Source of the DNA: a virus
Lineage: Duplodnaviria > Caudoviricetes
Reading direction: 5' to 3' (one strand)
IMG/VR virus record: IMGVR_UViG_2517572207_000003
Length of the DNA: 64,000 nt
Part shown: one piece after another, positions 2 through 52,710 of the stretch
Layout: the number at the start of each line of letters is the position of its first letter
Numbering within the stretch: position 1 is the stretch's first letter
Program-made: the position numbers and the translations under genes
Notes under the pieces: model-generated
What the model saw: the letters and a program-made list of their open reading frames with translations, nothing else
Database searches by the model: none
What the model was told of the DNA's origin: nothing

Positions 2-1384
2 TTTACAGGACGAAACGGTCGGGGTAAAACGACGTTCTTAAACCTGCTGCAGGGGAAGTACGAATACAGCGGTACGATCTCCACACCAGTCGCCTTTGAT
101 TATTTTCCGTTTCCCGTCGAACATCCGGAGTATTTGACTTTAGATGTCGTCGAAGAGATCGTGCCAAGCTATGAGAACTGGAAGCTGATGCGTGAACTGA
201 ACCTGCTTAAGGTTTCAGAAGACGTGTTGTACCGACCATTCGAATCGCTGTCCCAAGGAGAACAGACGAAGGTATTGCTGGCTGTGCTATTCATCCAAGA
301 CAATCGATTTCTGCTCATCGACGAGCCGACCAATCATCTCGATTTGCACGCACGCAAGCTTGTCGCCGATTATCTGAATACGAAGCGTGGTTTTATTCTT
401 GTTTCACACGACCGTGCTTTTCTCGACCGCTGCGTGGATCATATTCTGTCGATCAACAAAACGAATATTGAAATCCAAAAAGGCAACTTCTCCAGCTGGT
501 GGACGAACAAAACTCGCCAGGATACATTCGAAATGGCACAAAACGAAAAGCTGTACAAAGACATACAGCGTTTATCAGCTTCCGCTAAACGTACTAGTAG
601 CTGGTCTTTCGAGACCGAAAAATCGAAAAACGGCACACGAAATTCCGGTTCCAAACTTGACAAGGGGTACGTCGGACATAAGGCAGCCAAAATGATGAAA
701 CGCTCAAAATCCATCGAACAGCGGCAACACACTGCTTTAGAGGAAAAATCGAAACTGCTCCGAAATATCGAACAGTCAGAAAGCCTTGCGATCTCTCAGC
801 TCGTGTATCCCAAATCGGAATTGGCGATACTGGATCATGTTACGATTTACTACGGGGAAAGAGCAGTATGCAAGAACGTTAGTCTGATGATTGAACCAGG
901 AGATCGGATTGCAATTTCAGGTCCAAATGGTTCAGGTAAGTCTAGCTTGCTTCACCTGCTCAACGCTGAGGAGCTATACTATACAGGTACGTTTCAACGG
1001 GATCCGCAGCTTCGCGTTTCCTATGTATCCCAGAATACTTCTGATTTGCGAGGTACGCTTTCCGATTATGCAGCAGAGCACAGAATTGACGAAAGCTTAT
1101 TTAAAGCCGTGTTGCGTAAGCTAGATTTCGCCCGCATCCAGTTTGAGAAGGATATATCGGCGTTTAGCGGCGGGCAGAAGAAGAAAGTTCTGATCGCGAG
1201 AAGCCTATGTGAGGAGGCTCATCTGCATATTTGGGACGAACCGCTCAACTTTGTTGACGTGATTTCCCGGATGCAAATTGAGGAGCTGCTGCTTGAATAC
1301 ACGCCCACCATTGTATTCGTAGAGCATGATCGGGAATTTCATGACCGGGTCGCCACGAAAACGATTGAACTCGGTGGGGATTAG
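2..1384 (+). CDS. lsa: Lsa-family ABC-F ribosomal protection protein (5' truncated by window edge)
   Basis: Frame open from base 2 (FTGRNGRGKTT Walker A); two ABC domains (LSQGEQTK/LLIDEPTNHLD; GPNGSGKS/FSGGQKKK/IWDEPLNF), no TM segments, Lsa-like linker DKGYVGHKAAKMMKRSK. Confidence 0.85.
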   Translation, partial: FTGRNGRGKTTFLNLLQGKYEYSGTISTPVAFDYFPFPVEHPEYLTLDVVEEIVPSYENWKLMRELNLLKVSEDVLYRPFESLSQGEQTKVLLAVLFIQDNRFLLIDEPTNHLDLHARKLVADYLNTKRGFILVSHDRAFLDRCVDHILSINKTNIEIQKGNFSSWWTNKTRQDTFEMAQNEKLYKDIQRLSASAKRTSSWSFETEKSKNGTRNSGSKLDKGYVGHKAAKMMKRSKSIEQRQHTALEEKSKLLRNIEQSESLAISQLVYPKSELAILDHVTIYYGERAVCKNVSLMIEPGDRIAISGPNGSGKSSLLHLLNAEELYYTGTFQRDPQLRVSYVSQNTSDLRGTLSDYAAEHRIDESLFKAVLRKLDFARIQFEKDISAFSGGQKKKVLIARSLCEEAHLHIWDEPLNFVDVISRMQIEELLLEYTPTIVFVEHDREFHDRVATKTIELGGD

Positions 1385-1465
1385 AATTTTACAAATTGAA
1401 TTGGATTAAGACATGATTTCAACGATAGAAAGCTTTGTTCAACAACTTTTATGAAAAGGAAAAAG

Positions 1466-1546
1466 ATTGAACTAAAGGCACACGATAGTTCAATCGAACA
1501 TCGGCAGTCTAGGATTTTATTTTTTCGTCCATGGCTGCCGATGGTT
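1466..1546. repeat. Palindromic cassette-boundary site plus conserved hairpin (opposite orientation to the other copies)
   Basis: ATTGAACTAAAGGCACACGATAGTTCAAT followed by ATCGGCAG..CTGCCGAT stem, similar to the reverse complement of 45855-45930. Confidence 0.65.
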
Positions 1547-2019
1547 TTATTGAAGACAGTTTAATAGTTATCTCACTAAGACTAAGAAGCTTATATTATT
1601 TTACAGTGGGTTTTGCTTCTTCTACTCTACTCTCACTGTCCATTATGGGAAATTCCGCTTCAAATGCTATTGCAAAACGGACAACAGGATCAATAAAATT
1701 TGATCAAGGAAGTATAAGCCAACTTGTTTTAGCTGTTTGTGACTTTTACCAGCAACCAAGATTACAATGTCGCCAAAGTAATATAAGTTTGGTAATCCCC
1801 CAATTGAAAGAAAAAATATTGAGTGAGTTGAATTTGTATTTGCTTAAGAGTGTAGAAAACTTATATACAGATATGGAGAAAGATTTATTCGTATCTATTT
1901 ATGCGAACGTAATCTATGAGGCTGGTTATTTATGGGCTTCCGGAAAAGTAAAATTAAACAAAGAAGAAATAGCTAAGAAAATTTCGTTATTCGTATTAGG
2001 TGGGCAGAACTCTCTTTAA
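1531..2019 (+). pseudogene. TetR-family C-terminal domain fragment lacking the HTH
   Basis: C-terminal ...IYEAGYLWASGKVKLNKEEIAKKI pattern resembles Bacillales TetR C-domains; no N-terminal HTH and no clear RBS. Confidence 0.45.
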
Positions 2020-2524
2020 TGCTGCTTTTGCTCACTTTCTTAATATTGCTCATCCTCCTCCCAACAGATAAGAAACAATAAAAAAACACAAGCAATTACG
2101 CTTGTGTTTTGATGCAGCCTATATCAGATCACTCTCAAAGAGACAAGACCCTGAAACTGTACCACGTAAGGCTTCAAGCTCATCCAGAGCTTTCTTTAAA
2201 TCACCGTCCATCGCTCATATCCTATTTTCATTAAGCACATTCCCCTCTGTACAATTCATGATTACTTTAGAATAATCCGCAAAAACGTTGCGCTTGCCAT
2301 GCAGGTCCAGTCGCGAAACAGCCCCGGCAATTTCCGTAACTCACCGTGTGGAAAACGACACCCCCATTGAAAAGGATGCCTCAACACTATGAATAAAGTA
2401 ACAAATTTCAGGATAAAAAATCATAGTTCCTAATGTCAGAAGAAGCCAAAGTATTAGACTGACCTTAGAAATTGAAACAGCGACAACTAAGACGAGGAAA
2501 TAGGGTCCTTGATTGTCGCTATTG

Positions 2525-2555
2525 CATTGAACTAACGTATCCCGTTAGTTCAATG
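2525..2555. repeat. Palindromic cassette-boundary site
   Basis: Perfect 13-bp inverted repeat CATTGAACTAACG-TATCC-CGTTAGTTCAATG, 13 nt past the hydrolase stop codon. Confidence 0.8.
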
Positions 2556-2568
2556 GATTAATATACAA

Positions 2569-3387
2569 CTAAAATCCAAACTCTGTTACTCTTTCAAGCC
2601 ACTCACGCATAAGTGACTCAAATAATAGAGTCTGTTCAATCTGAAGATTATGGCCTGCTCGATCTAGAACGGCAAAGGTTGCTCTAGGATAATTGTCTAA
2701 AATTCTAAAAGCATCTATGTAACCAACAACTGCATCTTGTCGCCCAAGAGTAAATACTGTTGGTTTATCGAAAACTAATTCATCTATATTGGTGGAAAAT
2801 CCATAGTTTCTTTGAATCTTGCTAAGAAAATCGTAGTCAGCGATCTTACAACCTGCCATGATCTCTTCTGAATACCTTTTCCAATTATATTCATTGAGAA
2901 CGACTTGATTTGCGCTAAAATCACTTACTTGCTCTTCACTTAAGGTGTCCATAAACTCGCGATCACTATGAACAACAAAATGCTCGGGAAGTATTCTTCT
3001 TTTGTGTTCAGGAATAATTAATGGGCAAATCAGTGCAGCCCCACCAATACGATCTTTATGTCTATTAATTATTCCTCTTGTAATATATCCACCGTATGAT
3101 TCACCTGCTATGAGATAATCTTGGTTTGGGACAAGAGTTTCAATAAAATTTATAACTGCTTCTAGCATATCATCTGAATTACATATTTGATCGTAATCCT
3201 TTGTTTGTCCCATTCCAGGCAGGTCAAGATAGATACGACGCCAATTGGAATTATCTTCAAATATCGGTTCCATACACCCACTCATTAACCGATGGTCTGG
3301 TGTAAAACCATGGATCATTATAATTGGTTTGCCTTTACCAATTTCCTCGTAATATATATTGGCATTCTTGACTTTACAATATGGCAT
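2569..3387 (-). CDS. Alpha/beta fold hydrolase
   Basis: IHGF oxyanion motif, DLPGMG, GESYGG nucleophile elbow, AGHNLQIE catalytic His. Confidence 0.9.
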   Translation of the reverse strand: MPYCKVKNANIYYEEIGKGKPIIMIHGFTPDHRLMSGCMEPIFEDNSNWRRIYLDLPGMGQTKDYDQICNSDDMLEAVINFIETLVPNQDYLIAGESYGGYITRGIINRHKDRIGGAALICPLIIPEHKRRILPEHFVVHSDREFMDTLSEEQVSDFSANQVVLNEYNWKRYSEEIMAGCKIADYDFLSKIQRNYGFSTNIDELVFDKPTVFTLGRQDAVVGYIDAFRILDNYPRATFAVLDRAGHNLQIEQTLLFESLMREWLERVTEFGF

Positions 3388-3517
3388 ACAGACTCCTCCA
3401 AAATTGAGTTATTATTATAATATTCTTACACTAAAGAAGAATCTACATGTTTTATCAAGCAAACCAGATCTCCTTTCCGTTTCGTTTTGATTATATACGC
3501 ATATATAATATATGTAA

Positions 3518-3531
3518 AGAACACTTGTTCC
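3518..3531. promoter_or_regulatory. LexA/DinR (SOS) box upstream of the hydrolase
   Basis: AGAACACTTGTTCC fits the Bacillota GAAC-N4-GTTC consensus. Confidence 0.55.
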
Positions 3532-3549
3532 CTATTCTTGTTTTCGGAG

Positions 3550-3577
3550 TTAAACTAACCTGCCCGTTACTTCAATG
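3550..3577. repeat. Palindromic cassette-boundary site
   Basis: TTAAACTAACCTGCCCGTTACTTCAATG. Confidence 0.75.
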
Positions 3578-3656
3578 AAAAAAAGCAGCCCCTCATGAAC
3601 TGCCCTACTGCTAGTCACTTCAACAATAGGATGAGTTCATACAAGGGCTACCCCAT

Positions 3657-3926
3657 TTACCAAGTAATCCAACCGCTCGTTCGTTTGTAACTGTGCAGGA
3701 TCTCGTATTCCTCACTACGCATCAGTCGTTTCATTTTTGTTCTATACAGCCGATAATCATCTTTTCTTGCTACTTTACATTCTTTGTTGTAATGAACACT
3801 CTTGATTCCTTTACGGAAATCCTTAAGCTTCTCTTTTCTTGGATCTTTGGGCTTATTATTGATCTCCAGACTACGCTGTTTCTCATCTTCCCAGGATTGA
3901 ATCTCTTCCCGTGTAAACATCTTCAT
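3657..3926 (-). CDS. Hypothetical basic protein (cassette cargo; 5' end possibly damaged)
   Basis: 89-aa ORF between boundary sites; the nearest good RBS/ATG (4009) is out of frame. Confidence 0.55.
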   Translation of the reverse strand: MKMFTREEIQSWEDEKQRSLEINNKPKDPRKEKLKDFRKGIKSVHYNKECKVARKDDYRLYRTKMKRLMRSEEYEILHSYKRTSGWITW

Positions 3927-4050
3927 CCCCGTTGTGCCGGGTTAGATTTTGGCATTTGAAGCCATGACCTTAGACACAACTAATAGAAGAAGATCTTCGG
4001 ATTGAACATTAAATCACCTCTGAATTTATTCGCCCTTATTTTAACATATT

Positions 4051-4069
4051 TATAACTATTCTTCCCGTT
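4051..4069. repeat. Degenerate cassette-boundary site
   Basis: TATAACTATTCTTCCCGTT aligns with the left arm and spacer of 5208-5235; right arm lost. Confidence 0.4.
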
Positions 4070-4193
4070 TTACGCCTTCAATCAGTGTTTAGACAATCAT
4101 TTTACATATTTGAAATTTGCAACTTTCCCCTCTAAACCTTCCTCATCCTGGTCCGTTCCTGTTTCACCATGAGCTCCCTTCTAAAGGGAGTCT

Positions 4194-5111
4194 TTATGCA
4201 TAGGTATACTCCGGTCCCAATCGTTCGATAATTCGATCCAACTGTCTGGTTAGATAAGGCGAAACGTCACCAATGCCAGACACTGCTTCTAACAAGGGAA
4301 AGGATTGCCCACCCCACGGGCCTTGTGGATCAAAGACTTGTCTACCGATTCGCAAGCCTTCTGTTTCCCTGAAGATGTTCAATCGTTCCAATCCTTCAAT
4401 AAGCAGCCCGACCGGCAGCGTTTTGTTCCTACGTCGGGACCATTCTGCCAAGAAGGACATGCCACGTAATATATCATATTCAAAAAACCTCGGAAAACAA
4501 GGCTTCAGCCATTCCATATCGATGACACTTCTATTTTGTTTAGAACATACAAGACGATGCTCAATTAAATAACGTGCGCCTTCATCTAAGAAAACGACTT
4601 CCTGTTCAGTAAATTCACGGTCTGTATGCCATAAGATAGCTTCAAGCGGAGGAAGTGTCGAAACAATAGAGCTCTTTTTAGAATGAATATAAGCTTCAGG
4701 ATCGCAGTTCAGTCCGCCATCAGGTAACTGATGCTTTAAGAGCCATTCGCGAATCCAAGGCAGTTCCTTGTCCAAATCACAGCCATACGCCATTAGAATC
4801 ATATAGTATACGGCAAGTTCACAATGGCAGCAATCCATCTTCATCTTATCACTTTCACTTGTTGGATGGTCATCGGGGAATATGATGAAGGTGGGCCAAA
4901 CCTGAGTTTCGAGTAAATATTTTGCTCCAGTAATAGCAGACTCGGGAATTAGTTTCACCTCACCCATTTCATAAAGAGCAGCCATATGCCACCAAGCTCC
5001 ATCCCATTTTCGACGGCTGCACTCGCCGTGAGTCATCCCCAAATGCGGAGTAGATTCAAGGAACTGTATAGATTCTTCGATTGCTAAACGAATATTTTGA
5101 TTTGCTTCCAT
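4194..5111 (-). CDS. Hypothetical protein, prenyltransferase/squalene-cyclase-like alpha/alpha barrel
   Basis: WLLKHQLPDGGLNC QW-like repeat, FPRFFEYDILRG; RBS AAGGAG. Confidence 0.6.
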   Translation of the reverse strand: MEANQNIRLAIEESIQFLESTPHLGMTHGECSRRKWDGAWWHMAALYEMGEVKLIPESAITGAKYLLETQVWPTFIIFPDDHPTSESDKMKMDCCHCELAVYYMILMAYGCDLDKELPWIREWLLKHQLPDGGLNCDPEAYIHSKKSSIVSTLPPLEAILWHTDREFTEQEVVFLDEGARYLIEHRLVCSKQNRSVIDMEWLKPCFPRFFEYDILRGMSFLAEWSRRRNKTLPVGLLIEGLERLNIFRETEGLRIGRQVFDPQGPWGGQSFPLLEAVSGIGDVSPYLTRQLDRIIERLGPEYTYA

Positions 5112-5207
5112 CTGGGTATCTCCTTTTTGATTACCTCTACTTCACACTTCAGTTAAGCAACGCCTCACCTCGTATACCCTTCCACTCTTAAAAAATTCGA
5201 TATGTTA

Positions 5208-5235
5208 TTAAACTATCCTGCCCGTTAGCTTAATG
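5208..5235. repeat. Palindromic cassette-boundary site
   Basis: TTAAACTATCCTGCCCGTTAGCTTAATG; positionally equivalent to 46479-46506. Confidence 0.75.
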
Positions 5236-5319
5236 AGGCATCGTCAGAATATTACTTTATTTTTCAGTTTAGAACTTTATTTTCTTCTGACACCTATAAT
5301 AAAGACCGCAAAGGCTTAA

Positions 5320-19752: not shown

Positions 19753-19774
19753 CTTGCTTCCCCCGTCTCTCCGT

Positions 19775-41105: not shown

Positions 41106-42536
41106 TCAACCAAATGAAAATACATTTTTGAATTTAATATTTGCAAAAGATAATACAAATGCGTCGGCCCTATCCGGTGAGGGTAGGCCGCGCTTTTTCA
41201 TATCCTCTTTTCGTTCTAAAAATATCTTTCCGTTGCTACCCATCCGCCATTTTCGGGAAGTGAGCTGCGTTATAAGTTTCTCGTCATCTGGCAATTGCAG
41301 TTCACCCGGCTTGCCAAGCACATAGTTGCTCATATTAGCCTCAAGCATTTCTTTGACATGTCCCCACTGTTCAGCCCCTAGATTCCCATAATGACCGTCT
41401 TCCGCTGCTGATCCATTGTTAACTGGAATGATGGTGTAGCCTAGACTTTTCTCCTCATTAATCTCATTCAATCTATCTGTTACAGCTCCACCTATTCCAC
41501 TATCATCAATTCTTATTTCTACTTCGTCCATTTCTGTACGCTCTGCCTTTACATCATCAACCAGGCGTAATACCCAGCCTGTGGTTGTCATAGTGTCCTG
41601 CTTGTGGTGGAAATGAGTCTTTACCACCTTGCCTCCCATACGTGCGTACATGGTTGTCTCATCGTCTCCAAAACGTGCAACGTCAACACCTACAAATAGC
41701 TTTGTTCCAGAAGGTTCAATTTTAACTTCATCTTTGGCAAATTCCGCAGCTTCCAGAGAGATGAATGTATCAGATTCACCACGGGGAAACTCGCCTTCTA
41801 CACGAACGCGCCATACATCGCTTCCCTCTCCATATTTCCGTTTAAGCATAGCGATGTTTTCTTTACTCGTTCTCGGACTGTCCAAACAGGATACCTTACG
41901 TGTTTTATAATCAGATCTATCCTTATTGTGCGAATCATAAAAAACACCCGACGTTTTTGTCGGGTTTCCACACATCAGTATTTTATTGAACTCACCCGAC
42001 AACGTACCTAAAATGGCTTCCATGATTGGATCAGCAACACCCGATGCCTCATCCACAACAAATAGCATGTAGTCCTCATGAAAGCCTTGCATATTTTCAG
42101 GCTTGGTTGCTGTCCGAGCTGTAGCGAACCATCGTTCCTCATAATTTTTCATGTATATTTTGGTCTTAGTCCACTTAAGGATTCGTTTCAGCACCGGACT
42201 TTTAGATTGCCATTTATTTATCTCAGCCCATAACACGTCATGTAGTTGCTGCCTTGTAGGAGCTGTACAAATTACCTTTGGATATGGGAAACACGACAAG
42301 AACCATAGAGCTGTTGCCGCTTCTAATCCTGTTTTTCCTACGCCTTGACCTGAACGTACTGAAACACGAGGATTATTAGCTAAATCCATTAGAGTGCTTG
42401 CCTGCCAATCATCAGGATAGAACTTAAGCATCTCTTGACAGAACAATGTGGGATTCTTGCGATACTCAGGAATCCTTTTCTTGAATGCTTGAAGTCTCCG
42501 TTTCGTCTCCGGTGAGTCCTTCGTCTTCATCGCCAA
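41106..42536 (-). CDS. terL: Terminase large subunit
   Basis: SGQGVGKT Walker A, VVDEASG Walker B, GVDVARFGDD nuclease, SPDRADA. Confidence 0.95.
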   Translation of the reverse strand: MAMKTKDSPETKRRLQAFKKRIPEYRKNPTLFCQEMLKFYPDDWQASTLMDLANNPRVSVRSGQGVGKTGLEAATALWFLSCFPYPKVICTAPTRQQLHDVLWAEINKWQSKSPVLKRILKWTKTKIYMKNYEERWFATARTATKPENMQGFHEDYMLFVVDEASGVADPIMEAILGTLSGEFNKILMCGNPTKTSGVFYDSHNKDRSDYKTRKVSCLDSPRTSKENIAMLKRKYGEGSDVWRVRVEGEFPRGESDTFISLEAAEFAKDEVKIEPSGTKLFVGVDVARFGDDETTMYARMGGKVVKTHFHHKQDTMTTTGWVLRLVDDVKAERTEMDEVEIRIDDSGIGGAVTDRLNEINEEKSLGYTIIPVNNGSAAEDGHYGNLGAEQWGHVKEMLEANMSNYVLGKPGELQLPDDEKLITQLTSRKWRMGSNGKIFLERKEDMKKRGLPSPDRADAFVLSFANIKFKNVFSFG

Positions 42537-43749
42537 CCACCGCCTCTACCCAATCGTCAATTAAATCGTCTTCTGAATTTCCTTCTCCAGTGACCTTTGC
42601 CCTTTCAAGCTCAAGTTTCTCACGTTGCATCTTAAGTTTCTCGTCTTCAACCATCCGTTTATGTTTGTCTGGAAGCAGATCCATGTATTTAGTTAGCACG
42701 TCCAATGCCTTGGTTTTGTCGTGTAGCTTTACGCTCACTCCATCCTTACCCTGCTTGACTTCTGAAACCAGAGTTCCATCAATTTCATCGCTGTTTTTAA
42801 AAGAGACATAATTGTATCTGTACTTCTTCGTTTCTCCAGTGTCAGGATCAAACACAGGATCTCCTTCTAAGCCAAGAACATCTTCTTCCTTTTGACCGAA
42901 TTCTACGTAATCCGTAATGTCTGCGAAAGCAATCTTCATGTACTCCATTAGAACTCGCTGAGCATTTAAACCCACCTCGTCGATCATTGTTTCCTTGTGC
43001 TGCCGAATAATGTTTTGGATTTCAACTTTCTTCAACAGAGCGAAACCAATCTGATAGGCAGTTTTCTTACTGTATCCCGCCGCAATCGCTGACCTGGTAG
43101 CGTTGAAGTCTCGAAGGTATTCATAAGTGAATATCCTTTGCTTAGGCGTTAATCCATCCTCATCGGGAATTTCCGGTTCAGGTTCTTCAACAACCGTTGG
43201 AGCACTCTGTACTTTTTTGGAACGTTCCATATTACCGGAGCGTTCCGGTACTTTTTTCGGAGCGCTCCGTATTTTTGGAGTTTCCCCCAGCTCTTTTGAT
43301 AGTGCATCAACAGTAAGCAGAGTAGCATATACTTCCCTCGGCTTATCACCTTGATATGTACCAATGAATTTGCGCCGCTCCATTTCATCAATCAGTCGGG
43401 CCGCTCTGCTATAACCTATCCTCATTCTTCTCTGTAATAAAGAAACCGAGGCTTGTTTGGCCTCGGCTACAATTTGGACAGCTTTTAGAAAAAGATCGTC
43501 TGGATATGATGTTGTATCTTCATCTTTCTTTGCAGGTTCATTTTTTTTATCAGTTTCATCTTCATCGGAACGTTCCGTATGTTTCGCTTCTCCAATCAAA
43601 CTCTCCCACTTATCTTTAGCCTTCCATCCTCTTACCGTACCTTCAGATACACTAAGCTGAGATGCTATATCTGTGAGACGTATGTTGCCGGAACTGGCTT
43701 TGTATAAATCAAATGCTTCGTCCCGTTTAGGATCTCTCTTTCGTCCCAT
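42466..43749 (-). CDS. terS: Terminase small subunit with N-terminal HTH and an inserted FtsK-gamma domain
   Basis: TVRGWKAKDKW HTH; ASVSLLQRRMRIGYSRAARLIDEME gamma; LTPKQRIF..DFNATRSAIAAGYSKKTA TerS core. Confidence 0.9.
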   Translation of the reverse strand: MGRKRDPKRDEAFDLYKASSGNIRLTDIASQLSVSEGTVRGWKAKDKWESLIGEAKHTERSDEDETDKKNEPAKKDEDTTSYPDDLFLKAVQIVAEAKQASVSLLQRRMRIGYSRAARLIDEMERRKFIGTYQGDKPREVYATLLTVDALSKELGETPKIRSAPKKVPERSGNMERSKKVQSAPTVVEEPEPEIPDEDGLTPKQRIFTYEYLRDFNATRSAIAAGYSKKTAYQIGFALLKKVEIQNIIRQHKETMIDEVGLNAQRVLMEYMKIAFADITDYVEFGQKEEDVLGLEGDPVFDPDTGETKKYRYNYVSFKNSDEIDGTLVSEVKQGKDGVSVKLHDKTKALDVLTKYMDLLPDKHKRMVEDEKLKMQREKLELERAKVTGEGNSEDDLIDDWVEAVVGDEDEGLTGDETETSSIQEKDS

Positions 43750-45017: not shown

Positions 45018-45464
45018 TAAAGAAAACCCCTTTCATATAAATTCTTCTCCGACACGATGTACGCTAACTGATATATCATCCTTTTATTCCAGTTCCATAC
45101 CTCCACTTCCAAATGAATAATTATATATATCATTATAACCAAAAGATGGGGATTTTTGTTGCATTGATTCATTTCATCTAATCATACAAATTTAGAAAAT
45201 TGTCCTGATTTAACTTAGCAAAAAGAAGGAAATAGATTCCCATCTGCCTCGTTATTATAGATTGATGAGGTTGAGGAAAAGCTTCCCGAACAAATAAAAG
45301 AGCAACGATTTCACGCTGCTCTACTGTAGTGATCAGTAATTTATAAAATGCGGTTACCGCTAATCCGCCATGCCTGGAATAGGCCTTCAATGGACATCCT
45401 TCTTGCTCCGGGTTTATATTACCCTCTGAGTCCTGTCTCCGATTTAGTTTTAGTTTTGGAAAAA

Positions 45465-45719
45465 TTACAGAAGTTGATCAGCTAGCGCTTTAAGGCCACT
45501 TGGTACAGCAATTTGTTTGCCGTCATGTTCATTGCCGTTTACATAAGCTGTGTCTTTGTCTGCATAGTAAACTACACCTTTACCGCCGATAATCGGGAAG
45601 ACGCTTTCGTCGTAATCCAGATTTGTACCCACATACTTGCCATGCTTAGCTGCTTCACTTTCCGATGGATGGAGATGAAGAATTTTTGTGTTGTCCAAGT
45701 AAGCGTAACTATGTGCCAT
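45465..45719 (-). CDS. Hypothetical protein
   Basis: 84-aa ORF with RBS AGGAGG. Confidence 0.65.
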   Translation of the reverse strand: MAHSYAYLDNTKILHLHPSESEAAKHGKYVGTNLDYDESVFPIIGGKGVVYYADKDTAYVNGNEHDGKQIAVPSGLKALADQLL

Positions 45720-45901
45720 GTTTATTGCCTCCTAAAATAGTTTTAATTTGTTCCTGAATAAAGTGTAAATCCTTTCTACTCCGTACCTACTACGGATTTG
45801 CTAGTTCCTACTATCAGCAGAAAATAAAGTGGTAGACTGAGCCTAGAAATTGAAAACAGCGACAACCAAGGACGAAAAAAAGTCCTAGACTGTCGCTGTT
45901 C

Positions 45902-45930
45902 CATTGAACTAACGTTCCCCGTTAGCTTAA
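45902..45930. repeat. Palindromic cassette-boundary site overlapping the NUDIX stop codon
   Basis: CATTGAACTAACGTTCCCCGTTAGCTTAA; adjacent hairpin at 45855-45900. Confidence 0.8.
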
Positions 45931-46391
45931 ACCATATTCTCCAGATACTTGTTGAATAAGGCTAATGAGTATTGCTTTTGAGAGATCAAATTTTCTGTAA
46001 TCTGTTTAATTACTTCTTTATCGCGTAGCTCAAGTGAATCTGGAATCAACAGATCCGTAGGTGCTATCCATTTCGAATCAATGATCTCCGTTGTATCTAA
46101 CTGAAGAGAACCACCGATGATTTCACCAATAAAATGAAATAAAATAACCTGGTGATTTGTACTACTAATGAAGTTATAAATACCTGTAGTGGCTGTAAGT
46201 TTAACGTCGTAGCCGGTTTCTTCTTTTGCTTCTCTACGTGCCGCCTCTAGAATATCTTCATCATATTCGATTCTCCCTGACGGGAAGTTCCATGTATTCT
46301 TAACAGATGCTTTGTTTTCTTTGATCATAAGCAGCTTATCTTCATGTATTATCGAAACACTCACAACCAATACAATCCCGTTTTGAGTCAC
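45927..46391 (-). CDS. NUDIX hydrolase
   Basis: Nudix box GRIEYDEDILEAARREAKEETG; SOS-like box AGAACATATGTTCC at 46435-46448. Confidence 0.93.
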   Translation of the reverse strand: MTQNGIVLVVSVSIIHEDKLLMIKENKASVKNTWNFPSGRIEYDEDILEAARREAKEETGYDVKLTATTGIYNFISSTNHQVILFHFIGEIIGGSLQLDTTEIIDSKWIAPTDLLIPDSLELRDKEVIKQITENLISQKQYSLALFNKYLENMV

Positions 46392-46478
46392 GCTAAAAAA
46401 CCTCCATAGTTAGAAAATTAACGTCACTATTATTAGAACATATGTTCCGATTTTTGTAAATGACTGGATCACCGCTCA

Positions 46479-46506
46479 TTATACTAACCTGCCCGTTAGC
46501 TTTATG
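46479..46506. repeat. Palindromic cassette-boundary site
   Basis: TTATACTAACCTGCCCGTTAGCTTTATG. Confidence 0.75.
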
Positions 46507-46592
46507 AAGCATCGTCAAGACTATTACTTTATTTTCAGTCTAGAACTTTAGACACCTAAAATTAAGACCGCAAAGGCTTAAGCCCTTACGGT

Positions 46593-47225
46593 CTAATTTA
46601 CTTCTGGCATCCTCAGTCCAATTTCACCTTCCTTGTTTCGTCCCCGACCATAGTCGATGGTGACAAAATCCAATGTACGGTTTGTCTTTAGGCTGTTTGC
46701 TATATTAACAATAACCCTACGTCGTTTATCTGCAAATGTAGTCGCTGAGATAGGAGGAATGTCCTTGCGATAACCTTTTTCCAAATATTGTTGAGCTTTG
46801 AGATATTTCATACCATCCATAAATAACAGCTTTGCTATCAATCCCTCGTGCTTATCACGCATATTGTTTATTGCAAACTTAATGTTATTCGTAAGAAATT
46901 GATAGAATTTGTAATTCACATGGCGCTGGTCTTTGAGCAGAACGGCGTTAGCTGTCACATCTGCTGTCAGTTCTTGTCCAGAAACTCGCTTGGCAACCGA
47001 GCCTTCCGCAGAAAGTAGATCATATGCAGCCATTCCGTTTTCAATCTGCTGAAGAGCAAACTCATAGTTCTTGATCACGTCTACCATATCGGTATACTTA
47101 CCAAGTAGCCATTTTGTTTTACGGATATCTTCTTGTTCTAACTCATCAAAAAAGTTAATTTGAATAATTTTTATATTATCTTCCGTTTCTTCTTTTAACA
47201 ACAATATAGAGTTGGTTGAAGTCAT
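46593..47225 (-). CDS. Putative late transcriptional activator (ArpU/RinA-like)
   Basis: Last early gene before packaging; sigma-4-like C-terminus ISATTFADKRRRVIVNIA. Confidence 0.55.
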   Translation of the reverse strand: MTSTNSILLLKEETEDNIKIIQINFFDELEQEDIRKTKWLLGKYTDMVDVIKNYEFALQQIENGMAAYDLLSAEGSVAKRVSGQELTADVTANAVLLKDQRHVNYKFYQFLTNNIKFAINNMRDKHEGLIAKLLFMDGMKYLKAQQYLEKGYRKDIPPISATTFADKRRRVIVNIANSLKTNRTLDFVTIDYGRGRNKEGEIGLRMPEVN

Positions 47226-47340
47226 AAATACACCCCTTATTAATATTAATTGTTAATATATGTCGGAAAATTAGACATCATTTAAACTGTGTAATATTGT
47301 AGGGAGGAATAAAAAAATATAAACACAGGGAGCGATCAGT

Positions 47341-52398: not shown

Positions 52399-52710
52399 AT
52401 CCGCCCTCCTATATGTTTTCGGTTCCTATACAAGGTTGCTCGTTCGGATACAGTGTTGCGTAATCGAATCATTCAGCGTAGGAAAAGTTTCCTTAACTGA
52501 TCTTGGCTTGTGCCAACCTCACCGCATGATCCCGGTGAACGCTCTGAGCTTAATGACCTGTTTATACTCGCTCAGACGAGTTTTTAATTCTTTGATCCAA
52601 ATTGTAAGTAGGATGAAGTTCCACTCGAATTCCCAAAACCCGTCTTGCAGAATACCCATTGCTTGTATGTTTTTCTCATAATCAGCGCCTCCATTTTATA
52701 TGCAATATAC

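Follow-up and report, generated by a model that had tools for sequence, protein, structure and literature searches.

A NUDIX gene between paired palindromic sites in a transposase-less Tn7-family element of a prophage, and a possible cassette-exchange system of Bacillales

Integrons are the textbook route for collecting and reshuffling accessory genes, and transposons may carry them, as Tn7 does a class 2 integron and Tn402-type transposons do class 1 integrons. According to PMC4889954, no complete integron was found among Firmicutes genomes. A different arrangement is that of Tn6022, a Tn7-family element carrying a site of dif geometry and a Xer-type tyrosine recombinase; in PMC11014353, this system was proposed and shown to recombine between elements, diversifying their cargo. 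Here we analyse a NUDIX hydrolase gene in a stretch of 64,000 nucleotides of prophage DNA (Caudoviricetes; IMG/VR record IMGVR_UViG_2517572207_000003), which as a whole is called the window. We propose a two-layer explanation, to which, taken entire, we give about even credence: the gene would be a cassette between two ~30-bp sites used by a tyrosine recombinase, and these sites would lie inside a small Tn7-family transposon. Of its parts, the transposon vehicle is highly probable and the sites are very probably points of cassette exchange, while the arguments for and against a tyrosine-recombinase mechanism are nearly balanced.

Coordinates are those of the window, G000 denotes the genome that holds it, and the locus is read on the minus strand, the direction of late transcription of the phage. 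In this direction we found a late-activator-like gene, its terminator, the left site, the NUDIX gene, the right site and a long hairpin. The left, upstream site ('type 2'; 46478-46508, core 46483-46498, minus strand) reads CATAAAGC TAAC GGGCAG GTTAGTATAATG and has inverted arms of 11-12 bp around the centre GGGCAG. The right, downstream site ('type 1'; 45901-45933, core 45908-45924, minus strand) reads GGTTTAAGC TAAC GGGGAAC GTTAGTTCAATGG, with the same inverted arms around a 7-nt centre, GGGGAAC. The gene between them (45927-46391, minus strand) encodes 154 aa from a GTG start with a GGAGG ribosome-binding site upstream; its product matched Pfam PF00293 with 71.1 bits (cut-off 21.1) and contains a Nudix box, G-RIEYD-E-DILEAAR-REAKEETGY, conforming to the pattern GX5EX7REUXEEXGU. 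The bracketing of this gene by two sites, claimed in a first-pass annotation of the window, was thus confirmed. The same annotation had pointed to the TAA stop codon of the gene (45927-45929), which indeed lies inside the outer left arm of the right site; this is true but weighs little, because the arm consensus (..TTAAGC) holds a TAA in one frame, and the stop codons of two other cargo genes of the window, a hydrolase gene and p89, lie 12 and 78 nt before their own sites (counted by hand). Homology to copies in other genomes sets the limits of the NUDIX cassette at 45921-46497 on the minus strand (query positions 304-880). Beyond the right site, a long terminator-like hairpin of the right end is followed by a T-run (45857-45898, minus strand; fold z = -5.2), and over the three copies of this hairpin in the window z ranged from -5.2 to -6.7, with compensatory changes between copies. 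A promoter role of the left site was considered and dropped, because its TATAAT occurs in this copy only; a sigma-70 scan of 45400-47300 showed no promoter on the minus strand, its sole flag being the terminator of the late-activator-like gene.

The late-activator-like gene (46593-47225, minus strand) belongs to no Pfam or NCBIfam family and falls in PHROG 21810, of unknown function; its terminator was placed at 46565-46594 (minus strand) by a promoter/terminator scan. The DNA carrying the NUDIX cassette is inserted just past this terminator and ahead of the next phage gene, p84, which encodes a conserved 84-aa protein (45465-45719, minus strand) and in empty alleles directly follows the late-activator-like gene. 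Our comparison set held one genome per species. Of 92 other genomes of the same genus, 23 had homologues of the late-activator-like protein (E <= 1e-10); from these, 20 regions were compared, together with one IMG/VR relative. Eleven loci, including that of the window, shared the layout of the late-activator-like gene and the 84-aa gene, four of them empty and seven occupied. The empty loci (L058, L060, L069 and L071) consisted of the terminator, ~22 nt with one TATGG-like pentamer and the conserved leader of the 84-aa gene, and all four contained neither site nor end repeat. The occupied slots held the NUDIX gene in the window, a 61-aa ORF in both prophages of G026, a chloramphenicol-phosphotransferase-like kinase in G081, DUF2975 and HTH proteins in G068, an AAA_21 ATPase in G082 and two cassettes in the IMG/VR phage.

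None of the ten other loci of this layout carried the NUDIX gene, so it is not a constant resident of the slot. The platform ends of the window and of G026 are alike, including the defects of their tips, and homology breaks at both sites; therefore the platform was inherited and its cargo replaced later. No sites were found in eight loci of greater distance, where the late-activator-like protein is 71-76% identical and the 84-aa gene is missing. The left end of the platform was also present in three remnants with a degraded late-activator-like gene, namely at 2.4-5.3 kb of the window and in L072 and L074; a fourth remnant (L073) had no end repeats and no convincing site. The alignment of related prophages proposed by the first-pass annotation therefore yielded empty, single-cassette and multi-cassette alleles, but no empty allele that keeps a site. 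Its suggestion that the phage possesses a dedicated landing site for cassettes was not borne out: the empty alleles are devoid of sites, and the site is brought in by an inserted mini-transposon of the Tn7 family.

The presence and absence of the platform break at the tips of this transposon, ~55 nt outside the left core and ~95 nt outside the right core. Comparison of alleles, the end sequences and the end of Tn7 delimited a whole non-autonomous element of 743 bp (45812-46554, minus strand) carrying the NUDIX cassette. It is flanked by a 5-bp target duplication whose left copy is TTAGG (46555-46559, minus strand) and whose right copy, GTAGG (45807-45811, minus strand), matches it at four of five positions. 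End-repeat comparison identified TnsB-type repeats of the 21-bp AAATAAAGTnnTAGACTG family outside the sites: two in tandem before the left site (46516-46553, minus strand) and two inverted relative to them after the right site, the outer one at 45822-45839 (plus strand) and the other embedded in the terminator hairpin (45875-45892). Over the whole element family there are two to three direct 21-bp repeats at the left end and two to three inverted ones at the right end, between tips of the form 5'-TGT(N6)AAAATAAAGT...ACA-3', also read as TGTCAGAAG-AAAATAAAGTTCTAAACTGAA. The best-kept tip in the window, the left end of a remnant element (TGTCAGAAGAAAATAAAGTTCTAAACTGAA), was identical in register at 23 of 30 positions (hand count) to the Tn7 end printed as a primer, tgtgggcgg-acaataaagtcttaaactgaa, in PMC1475584.

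The TGT...ACA tips, TnsB-type repeats of ~22 bp (direct at one end and inverted at the other), the 5-bp duplication and the single-copy empty site are those expected of the Tn7 family. Genes for TnsA, TnsB, TnsC and a target selector are absent from the element, which codes for the NUDIX protein only. None of the elements inspected contained transposase genes, and they are therefore non-autonomous. Five end pairs were checked for duplications; two were perfect (GTTGC/GTTGC and TCAGA/TCAGA), and the flanks of both window elements matched at four of five positions (TTAGG/GTAGG and ATAGG/TTAGG). The NUDIX element has slightly decayed tips, its outer left repeat lacking ~9 nt and its right tip being TAT instead of TGT, and because both tips are affected it is probably no longer mobile. 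Profile searches of the window's genome (five seeds for each end, E < 0.01, seeds counted in) gave 14 matches for the left end and ~30 for the right end, some of the latter being reverse-strand echoes of the same places; dozens of sister elements occur in the chromosome and in the second replicon. The same genome has, at the classical attTn7 position ~40 bp away from glmS, a Tn7-type end containing AATAAAGT repeats, and a 98-aa TnsA fragment is close by. The region downstream of glmS (L076; G000:C1:5098000-5117999) contains a decayed Tn7-type element without transposase genes, whose cargo comprises beta-lactamase-family and erythromycin-esterase-family genes; the TnsA fragment is situated just outside it.

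A second element of the family lies in a prophage remnant at 2434-5292 (minus strand), between the flanking pentamers ATAGG and TTAGG, and carries three cassettes, with the genes p305 (4194-5111), p89 (3657-3926) and an alpha/beta hydrolase gene (2569-3387). This element contains sites on the minus strand at 5208-37, ~4055-69 (degenerate), 3550-79 and 2526-57. Since several sites of the same family occur at 2.5-5.2 kb, the array there is real; it represents a platform of this kind in a three-cassette state, which agrees with the earlier proposal that the NUDIX locus is the single-cassette state of that array. One more site, on the plus strand (1466-97), belongs to the right end of a third element (site, hairpin and repeats, 1459-1591, plus strand), whose left end is outside the window at G000:C1:3191205. 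An ABC-F ATPase gene (2-1384, plus strand; two ABC domains recognised from the translation) is located between the ends of this third element, and because it stands between a left and a right end of one element family it appears to be transposon cargo. The facing right ends of the different elements form a 64-nt inverted repeat (1466-1547 plus, 2491-2554 minus), and a 162-aa ORF between them had no Pfam or PHROG match.

The distribution of the sites was examined with the pattern CTAACGGG-N3-5-GWTAGT, its reversed form serving as control. The pattern occurred ten times in the window's genome (reversed control, none) and was found in 30 of 61 related genomes, with 0-2 control matches per genome; these genomes included 24 of 36 others of the same genus and 5 of 24 from other genera in the order, with up to 34 copies per genome. 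A looser expression gave 15 matches in the window's genome, one of them apparently spurious. An 11-mer test within the window alone was weak (four matches against 0.89 expected, a number reached in 2 of 100 shuffles), but on the wider evidence the paired sites are not a chance match. The exact 18-mer GCTAACGGGCAGGWTAGT was found in at least 123 stretches of species-representative genomes; the titles of the matches listed were mostly of Paenibacillus, and they also included Neobacillus, Bacillus, Halobacillus, Rossellomorea, Halalkalibacter, Cohnella and Aneurinibacillus. Only two of 2.9 million IMG/VR viral contigs contained it, and the sites belong chiefly to chromosomes and plasmids.

Each site of ~30 bp is made up of two inverted arms of 11-12 bp, ..ATTAAGCTAAC / GTTAGTTNAAT.., and the centre distinguishes two types. 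The 6-nt centre GGGCAG marks the site upstream of each cassette, while the 7-nt centre GGGNNAC marks the closing site of an array, always with the terminator hairpin ~15 nt further on. In other species, neighbouring cassettes are separated by a unit of ~90 nt containing, in this order, a GGGNNAC site, a terminator, a T-run and a GGGCAG site. With spacings of 11-12/6/11-12 in the upstream type and 11-12/7/11-12 in the last site, the sites, two ~11-bp arms around a 6-8-bp centre, look like core sites of tyrosine recombinases, for example dif. The outer arms were conserved over 81 distinct sites, with no covariation between left and right, and pairing equalled that of shuffled partners at all ten positions. 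This argues for recognition of the double-stranded arms by a protein and not for selection on a hairpin, and the lack of covariation fits arms derived from different cassettes. Most sites are co-oriented with the replichore, as are most genes, and this was not used as evidence.

Copies of single cassettes were found at other places, ending in or near sites. A 515-bp copy of the p89 unit (94% identical) on contig C2 spans from within one site to within the next, and a copy of the p305 unit in G081 (95% identical) begins at the site core and ends at a degenerate site, the two loci differing beyond. The NUDIX unit recurred with 86-93% identity in nine other species. The first proposal that it is one exchangeable unit is supported. 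The expectation that NUDIX copies elsewhere would have the same ends held in part. Five of the nine alignments stopped exactly at ..GCTAAC, two ran into their own right-hand site and two stopped earlier, but recognisable sites on both sides were seen for only three copies, two of them inside arrays and one in a further Tn7-type element whose flanks differ.

Arrays of up to eight sites on the same strand were found in other species. Their cargo (NUDIX, SUKH, DUF4279, nucleotidyltransferase, GNAT, APS kinase with sulfotransferase, SnoaL, APH and glyoxalase) is typical of integron cassettes, and co-oriented arrays of exchangeable cassettes are a feature shared with integrons. In the window's genome, non-phage site pairs bracket SDR and HxlR genes (families taken from translations), both of which were confirmed by Pfam in the arrays of another species. 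Putative cargo-less platforms, consisting of a left repeat, a site with the 7-nt centre, and a terminator or right repeat, were present in G005, G077 and G110. An IS110-family element was inserted at exactly GCTA^ACGGGCAGG in L072 and L074, the prophage remnants of G067 and G081, and another one just past a site in G054 (L009:5310-6596), which suggests a site-specific target preference.

Homology junctions fall within TAAC-GGGNAG. A variant centre had moved with the upstream unit in the case of p305 and p89 and with the downstream unit in the case of NUDIX, which is expected from exchange at either edge of the central region. The events at the locus may accordingly be pictured in two layers. 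A transposase-less Tn7-family element would have inserted, with a 5-bp duplication, after the terminator of the late-activator-like gene, bringing with it a ~30-bp site just inside each transposon end, and the genes between the sites would behave as cassettes. A tyrosine recombinase would bind the arms as double-stranded DNA, with strand exchange at the borders of the centre (TAAC^GGGNAG^). A circular cassette bearing one reconstituted GGGCAG site, with the predicted junction ..CATTNANC-TAAC-GGGCAG-GTTAGT.., could then insert into, or leave, any resident site.

The best candidate for the enzyme is a Xer-like recombinase of 282 aa (L012:6476-7324) that is itself a cassette in arrays of other species, with intact orthologues in G008, G014 and G030. 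Xer-like tyrosine recombinase genes were found in three arrays, one full-length (282 aa) and two truncated, with 79-89% mutual identity and located between sites in the same way as other cassettes. The 282-aa protein scored 186 bits with NCBIfam XerC (cut-off 335) and 89.5 bits with the integron integrase TIGR02249 (cut-off 265). Orthologues or fragments of it (at least 60% identity) were present in 11 of 24 site-positive and in none of 12 site-negative genomes of the genus, relatives not being independent in this count. Two other Xer-like lineages lie 0.2-4 kb from sites. A host dif was sought with the E. coli consensus of PMC3325230, and a candidate, AGTTAACACAA-TATATA-TTATGTTAACT, was located at G000:C1:3000649, near the maximum of the GC skew; its assignment as dif is by inference. 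The arm of this candidate differs from the site arm GTTAGTTTAAT and no half-site of host dif was recognised, so borrowing of the host XerD through a perfect half-site, in the way of Tn6022, is not evident here. Several dif-like 28-mers, among them those at G000:C1 positions 2999009, 3000649, 3003252 and 3044677, cluster within 46 kb (2999009-3044677), ~160 kb from the GC-skew maximum, and could be a stack of Xer-dependent integrated elements.

Several findings weigh against the two-layer explanation. Searches for an autonomous Tn7-type partner with matching ends found none; in G000, TniQ and Mu-transpos_C had no match and TniB a non-specific one only, and although TnsA-bearing elements are present in G054, G022 and G001, the tnsABC element examined (G054:C8) ends differently. 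Among the five end pairs, one has unlike flanks, TAGGG/TTATA, and may join the ends of two elements. Six of the nine NUDIX copies had no recognisable upstream site, and four of these lie in the same ordinary chromosomal setting, with a GNAT gene on one side and an HTH regulator on the other, which may be either the source of the gene or a decayed array. No recombinase was linked to the sites in the window's genome, and an orthologue of the candidate was not found there; the cassettes of this genome are therefore probably immobile as long as no enzyme is provided in trans. Another 13 of the 24 site-positive genomes of the genus lack the candidate, which, being itself a cassette, may accompany the sites only passively. 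Centres of 6 and 7 nt are awkward for a classical two-strand exchange, and no circular intermediate or excision junction was observed. Public sequencing runs, stored as contigs, each contained at most 0.18 of the sampled words.

The alternative that survives best is that ordinary homologous recombination shuffles the cassettes across short linkers conserved for some other reason, like the module boundaries of mosaic phages. The junctions do consist of 30-90 bp of shared sequence, the end-points of homology can be placed only within conserved bases, and no recombinase is linked in the genome of the window. We nevertheless consider this reading unlikely, since it leaves unexplained an exact 18-mer with dif-like geometry kept over several genera of Bacillales; moreover, the two arms of a site come from different cassettes and each is still consensus, candidates for the predicted hybrid empty sites exist, and the core in common measures just ~16-30 bp, a short length for RecA-dependent exchange.

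That the hairpins act in RNA or transcription, as nut-like binding sites of an antiterminator or as a stabilising stem-loop with the terminator, and coincide with boundaries only through their conservation, we regard as improbable. The sites fold as hairpins, the right-hand type always lies ~15 nt upstream of a terminator hairpin, the loop GGNNA presumably recalls boxB-type pentaloops, and the first site comes just after the late-activator-like gene. However, the absence of arm covariation in the 81 sites, the presence of cargo genes on either strand between sites (for example SDR versus HxlR), the non-phage origin of most copies (with two viral contigs only) and the occurrence of sites at loci without a late-activator-like homologue all speak against a function of this sort, and no Rfam family matched the sites, either over the whole window at gathering scores or over 45700-46700 with E up to 5.

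An equally slim chance attaches to the palindromes being part of the transposon ends, bound by an accessory protein, with arrays arising by tandem or nested transposition followed by deletion of end repeats. Target immunity of the Tn7 family disfavours insertions near each other, according to PMC11014353. Nearly all sites in the window's genome do stand at a constant distance from a Tn7-type end, on its inner side, and the inner ~55 nt are alike at both ends; but both loops read GGG first on one strand and are hence direct repeats instead of the mirror images of terminal inverted repeats, internal sites of arrays have no end repeats, and G004 contains 20 sites and no end repeat at up to one mismatch. 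Finally, a true integron or CALIN with attC sites recombined by IntI is already contradicted and hardly tenable, in spite of the co-oriented arrays with typical integron cargo and of the class 2 integron that Tn7 itself carries, because the only recombinase lineage within arrays falls far below the integron-integrase cut-off, the ~30-bp sites with a conserved centre are not attC hairpins of 57-141 bp, and complete integrons are reported as not found in Firmicutes.

Other features of the prophage were noted. The GenBank phage collection had no match to the DNA of the locus or to the late-activator-like protein, and the small terminase subunit (42466-43749, minus strand, 427 aa) matched only distant Bacillus and Clostridium phages in it. 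This subunit is an unusual fusion, its N-terminal part and its Terminase_2 part being separated by an FtsK-gamma winged-helix domain (88 bits). A Pistol ribozyme (Rfam RF02679, 70.8 bits, gathering score 34.5) was matched at 52512-52581 on the minus strand of the prophage region. A second family of palindromic repeats (..AGGAAAnnTTTCCT.., D4/D20), at 19773, 23806, 31859, 40137, 43785, 45269 and 52475, could be an operator or a terminator and is unrelated to the cassette sites.

Taking the preferred two-layer reading beyond this locus, we tentatively suggest that Bacillales may possess a cassette system of their own, independent of integrons, in which a small cassette-borne Xer-like recombinase would recognise a ~30-bp site and move cassettes of one or a few genes from array to array, the arrays being seeded into prophages, plasmids and chromosomes by transposase-less Tn7-family elements. 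No description of these sites or elements was found in a literature search that left most subscription journals outside, and novelty is therefore not proven. If true, a separate cassette system in Paenibacillus, Neobacillus and relatives of Bacillus would help to explain the trade of small accessory genes in soil bacteria and would be a functional Gram-positive counterpart of the integrons riding on Tn7 or Tn402. The cargo seen comprises NUDIX, acetyltransferase, kinase, glyoxalase and immunity-type genes, an ABC-F ATPase and resistance-like families. The nesting of a cassette in a Tn7-family element in a prophage would let one small unit reach chromosome, plasmid and virus. The end repeats and the palindrome together could serve as a signature of accessory-gene bays that gene callers miss, and the 30-bp site with the 282-aa candidate recombinase defines a pair that can be tested.

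Among described systems, that of Tn6022 likewise combines a Tn7-family element with a Xer-type site and a Xer-type enzyme. In that system (PMC11014353) one half-site matches the XerD arm of the host perfectly, the recombinase gene adjoins the site, and each element has a single site. In the present case the two arms resemble each other and are unlike the candidate host dif, every cassette is bracketed by sites in direct repeat, the elements have no transposase genes and the recombinase is absent from the window's genome.

The likeness to integrons noticed in the first-pass annotation holds for the co-oriented exchangeable cassettes, but not for the integrase or for the type of site. As in integrons, arrays of mostly promoterless accessory-gene cassettes are bounded by imperfect palindromes, the same cassette occurs in different arrays, the cargo includes GNAT, glyoxalase, NUDIX and immunity-type genes, the platform is carried by a Tn7-family transposon, and an IS110-family element appears to target the cassette site. 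The hosts, in contrast, are Bacillales, and PMC4889954 gives complete integrons as not found in Firmicutes. Neither an IntI-type integrase with its extra domain beside attI and a promoter, nor any other adjacent integrase, was found in the window. An attC site spans 57-141 bp, is conserved in structure and has R''/L'' and L'/R' boxes around a variable centre, whereas the present sites have ~30 bp, arms conserved in sequence and a conserved centre of 6-7 nt. In addition, the site here is mostly carried along at the cassette's 5' end, and a cassette may contain two or three genes, which can lie on either strand.

Acinetobacter plasmids with their pdif modules, and the Xer-exploiting integrative elements (IMEX), are similar in that gene modules lie between Xer-type sites of 11-6-11 geometry without a linked dedicated integrase, but pdif sites occur in alternating orientation and are similar to the host dif, whereas ours are direct and unlike the candidate dif. 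The mobile insertion cassettes (MIC231) of the Bacillus cereus group and the mini-Tn7 of the laboratory share with the present elements transposon ends that flank passengers without a transposase, a target duplication and presumed mobilisation in trans; compared with MIC231, the ends here are of Tn7 type and not of IS231/IS4 type, and the interior has its own putative cassette-exchange sites. The IS1111-attC group of the IS110 family also inserts at one fixed position in a cassette recombination site, its target being attC and not, as here, a site of Bacillales. The PeSL (promoter-early stem-loop) cassettes of T4-type phages, lastly, are small accessory genes bounded by repeated stem-loops in hyperplastic regions, but they are promoter/terminator units shuffled by homologous recombination within phages, whereas the units described here are chiefly chromosomal and ride on a transposon.

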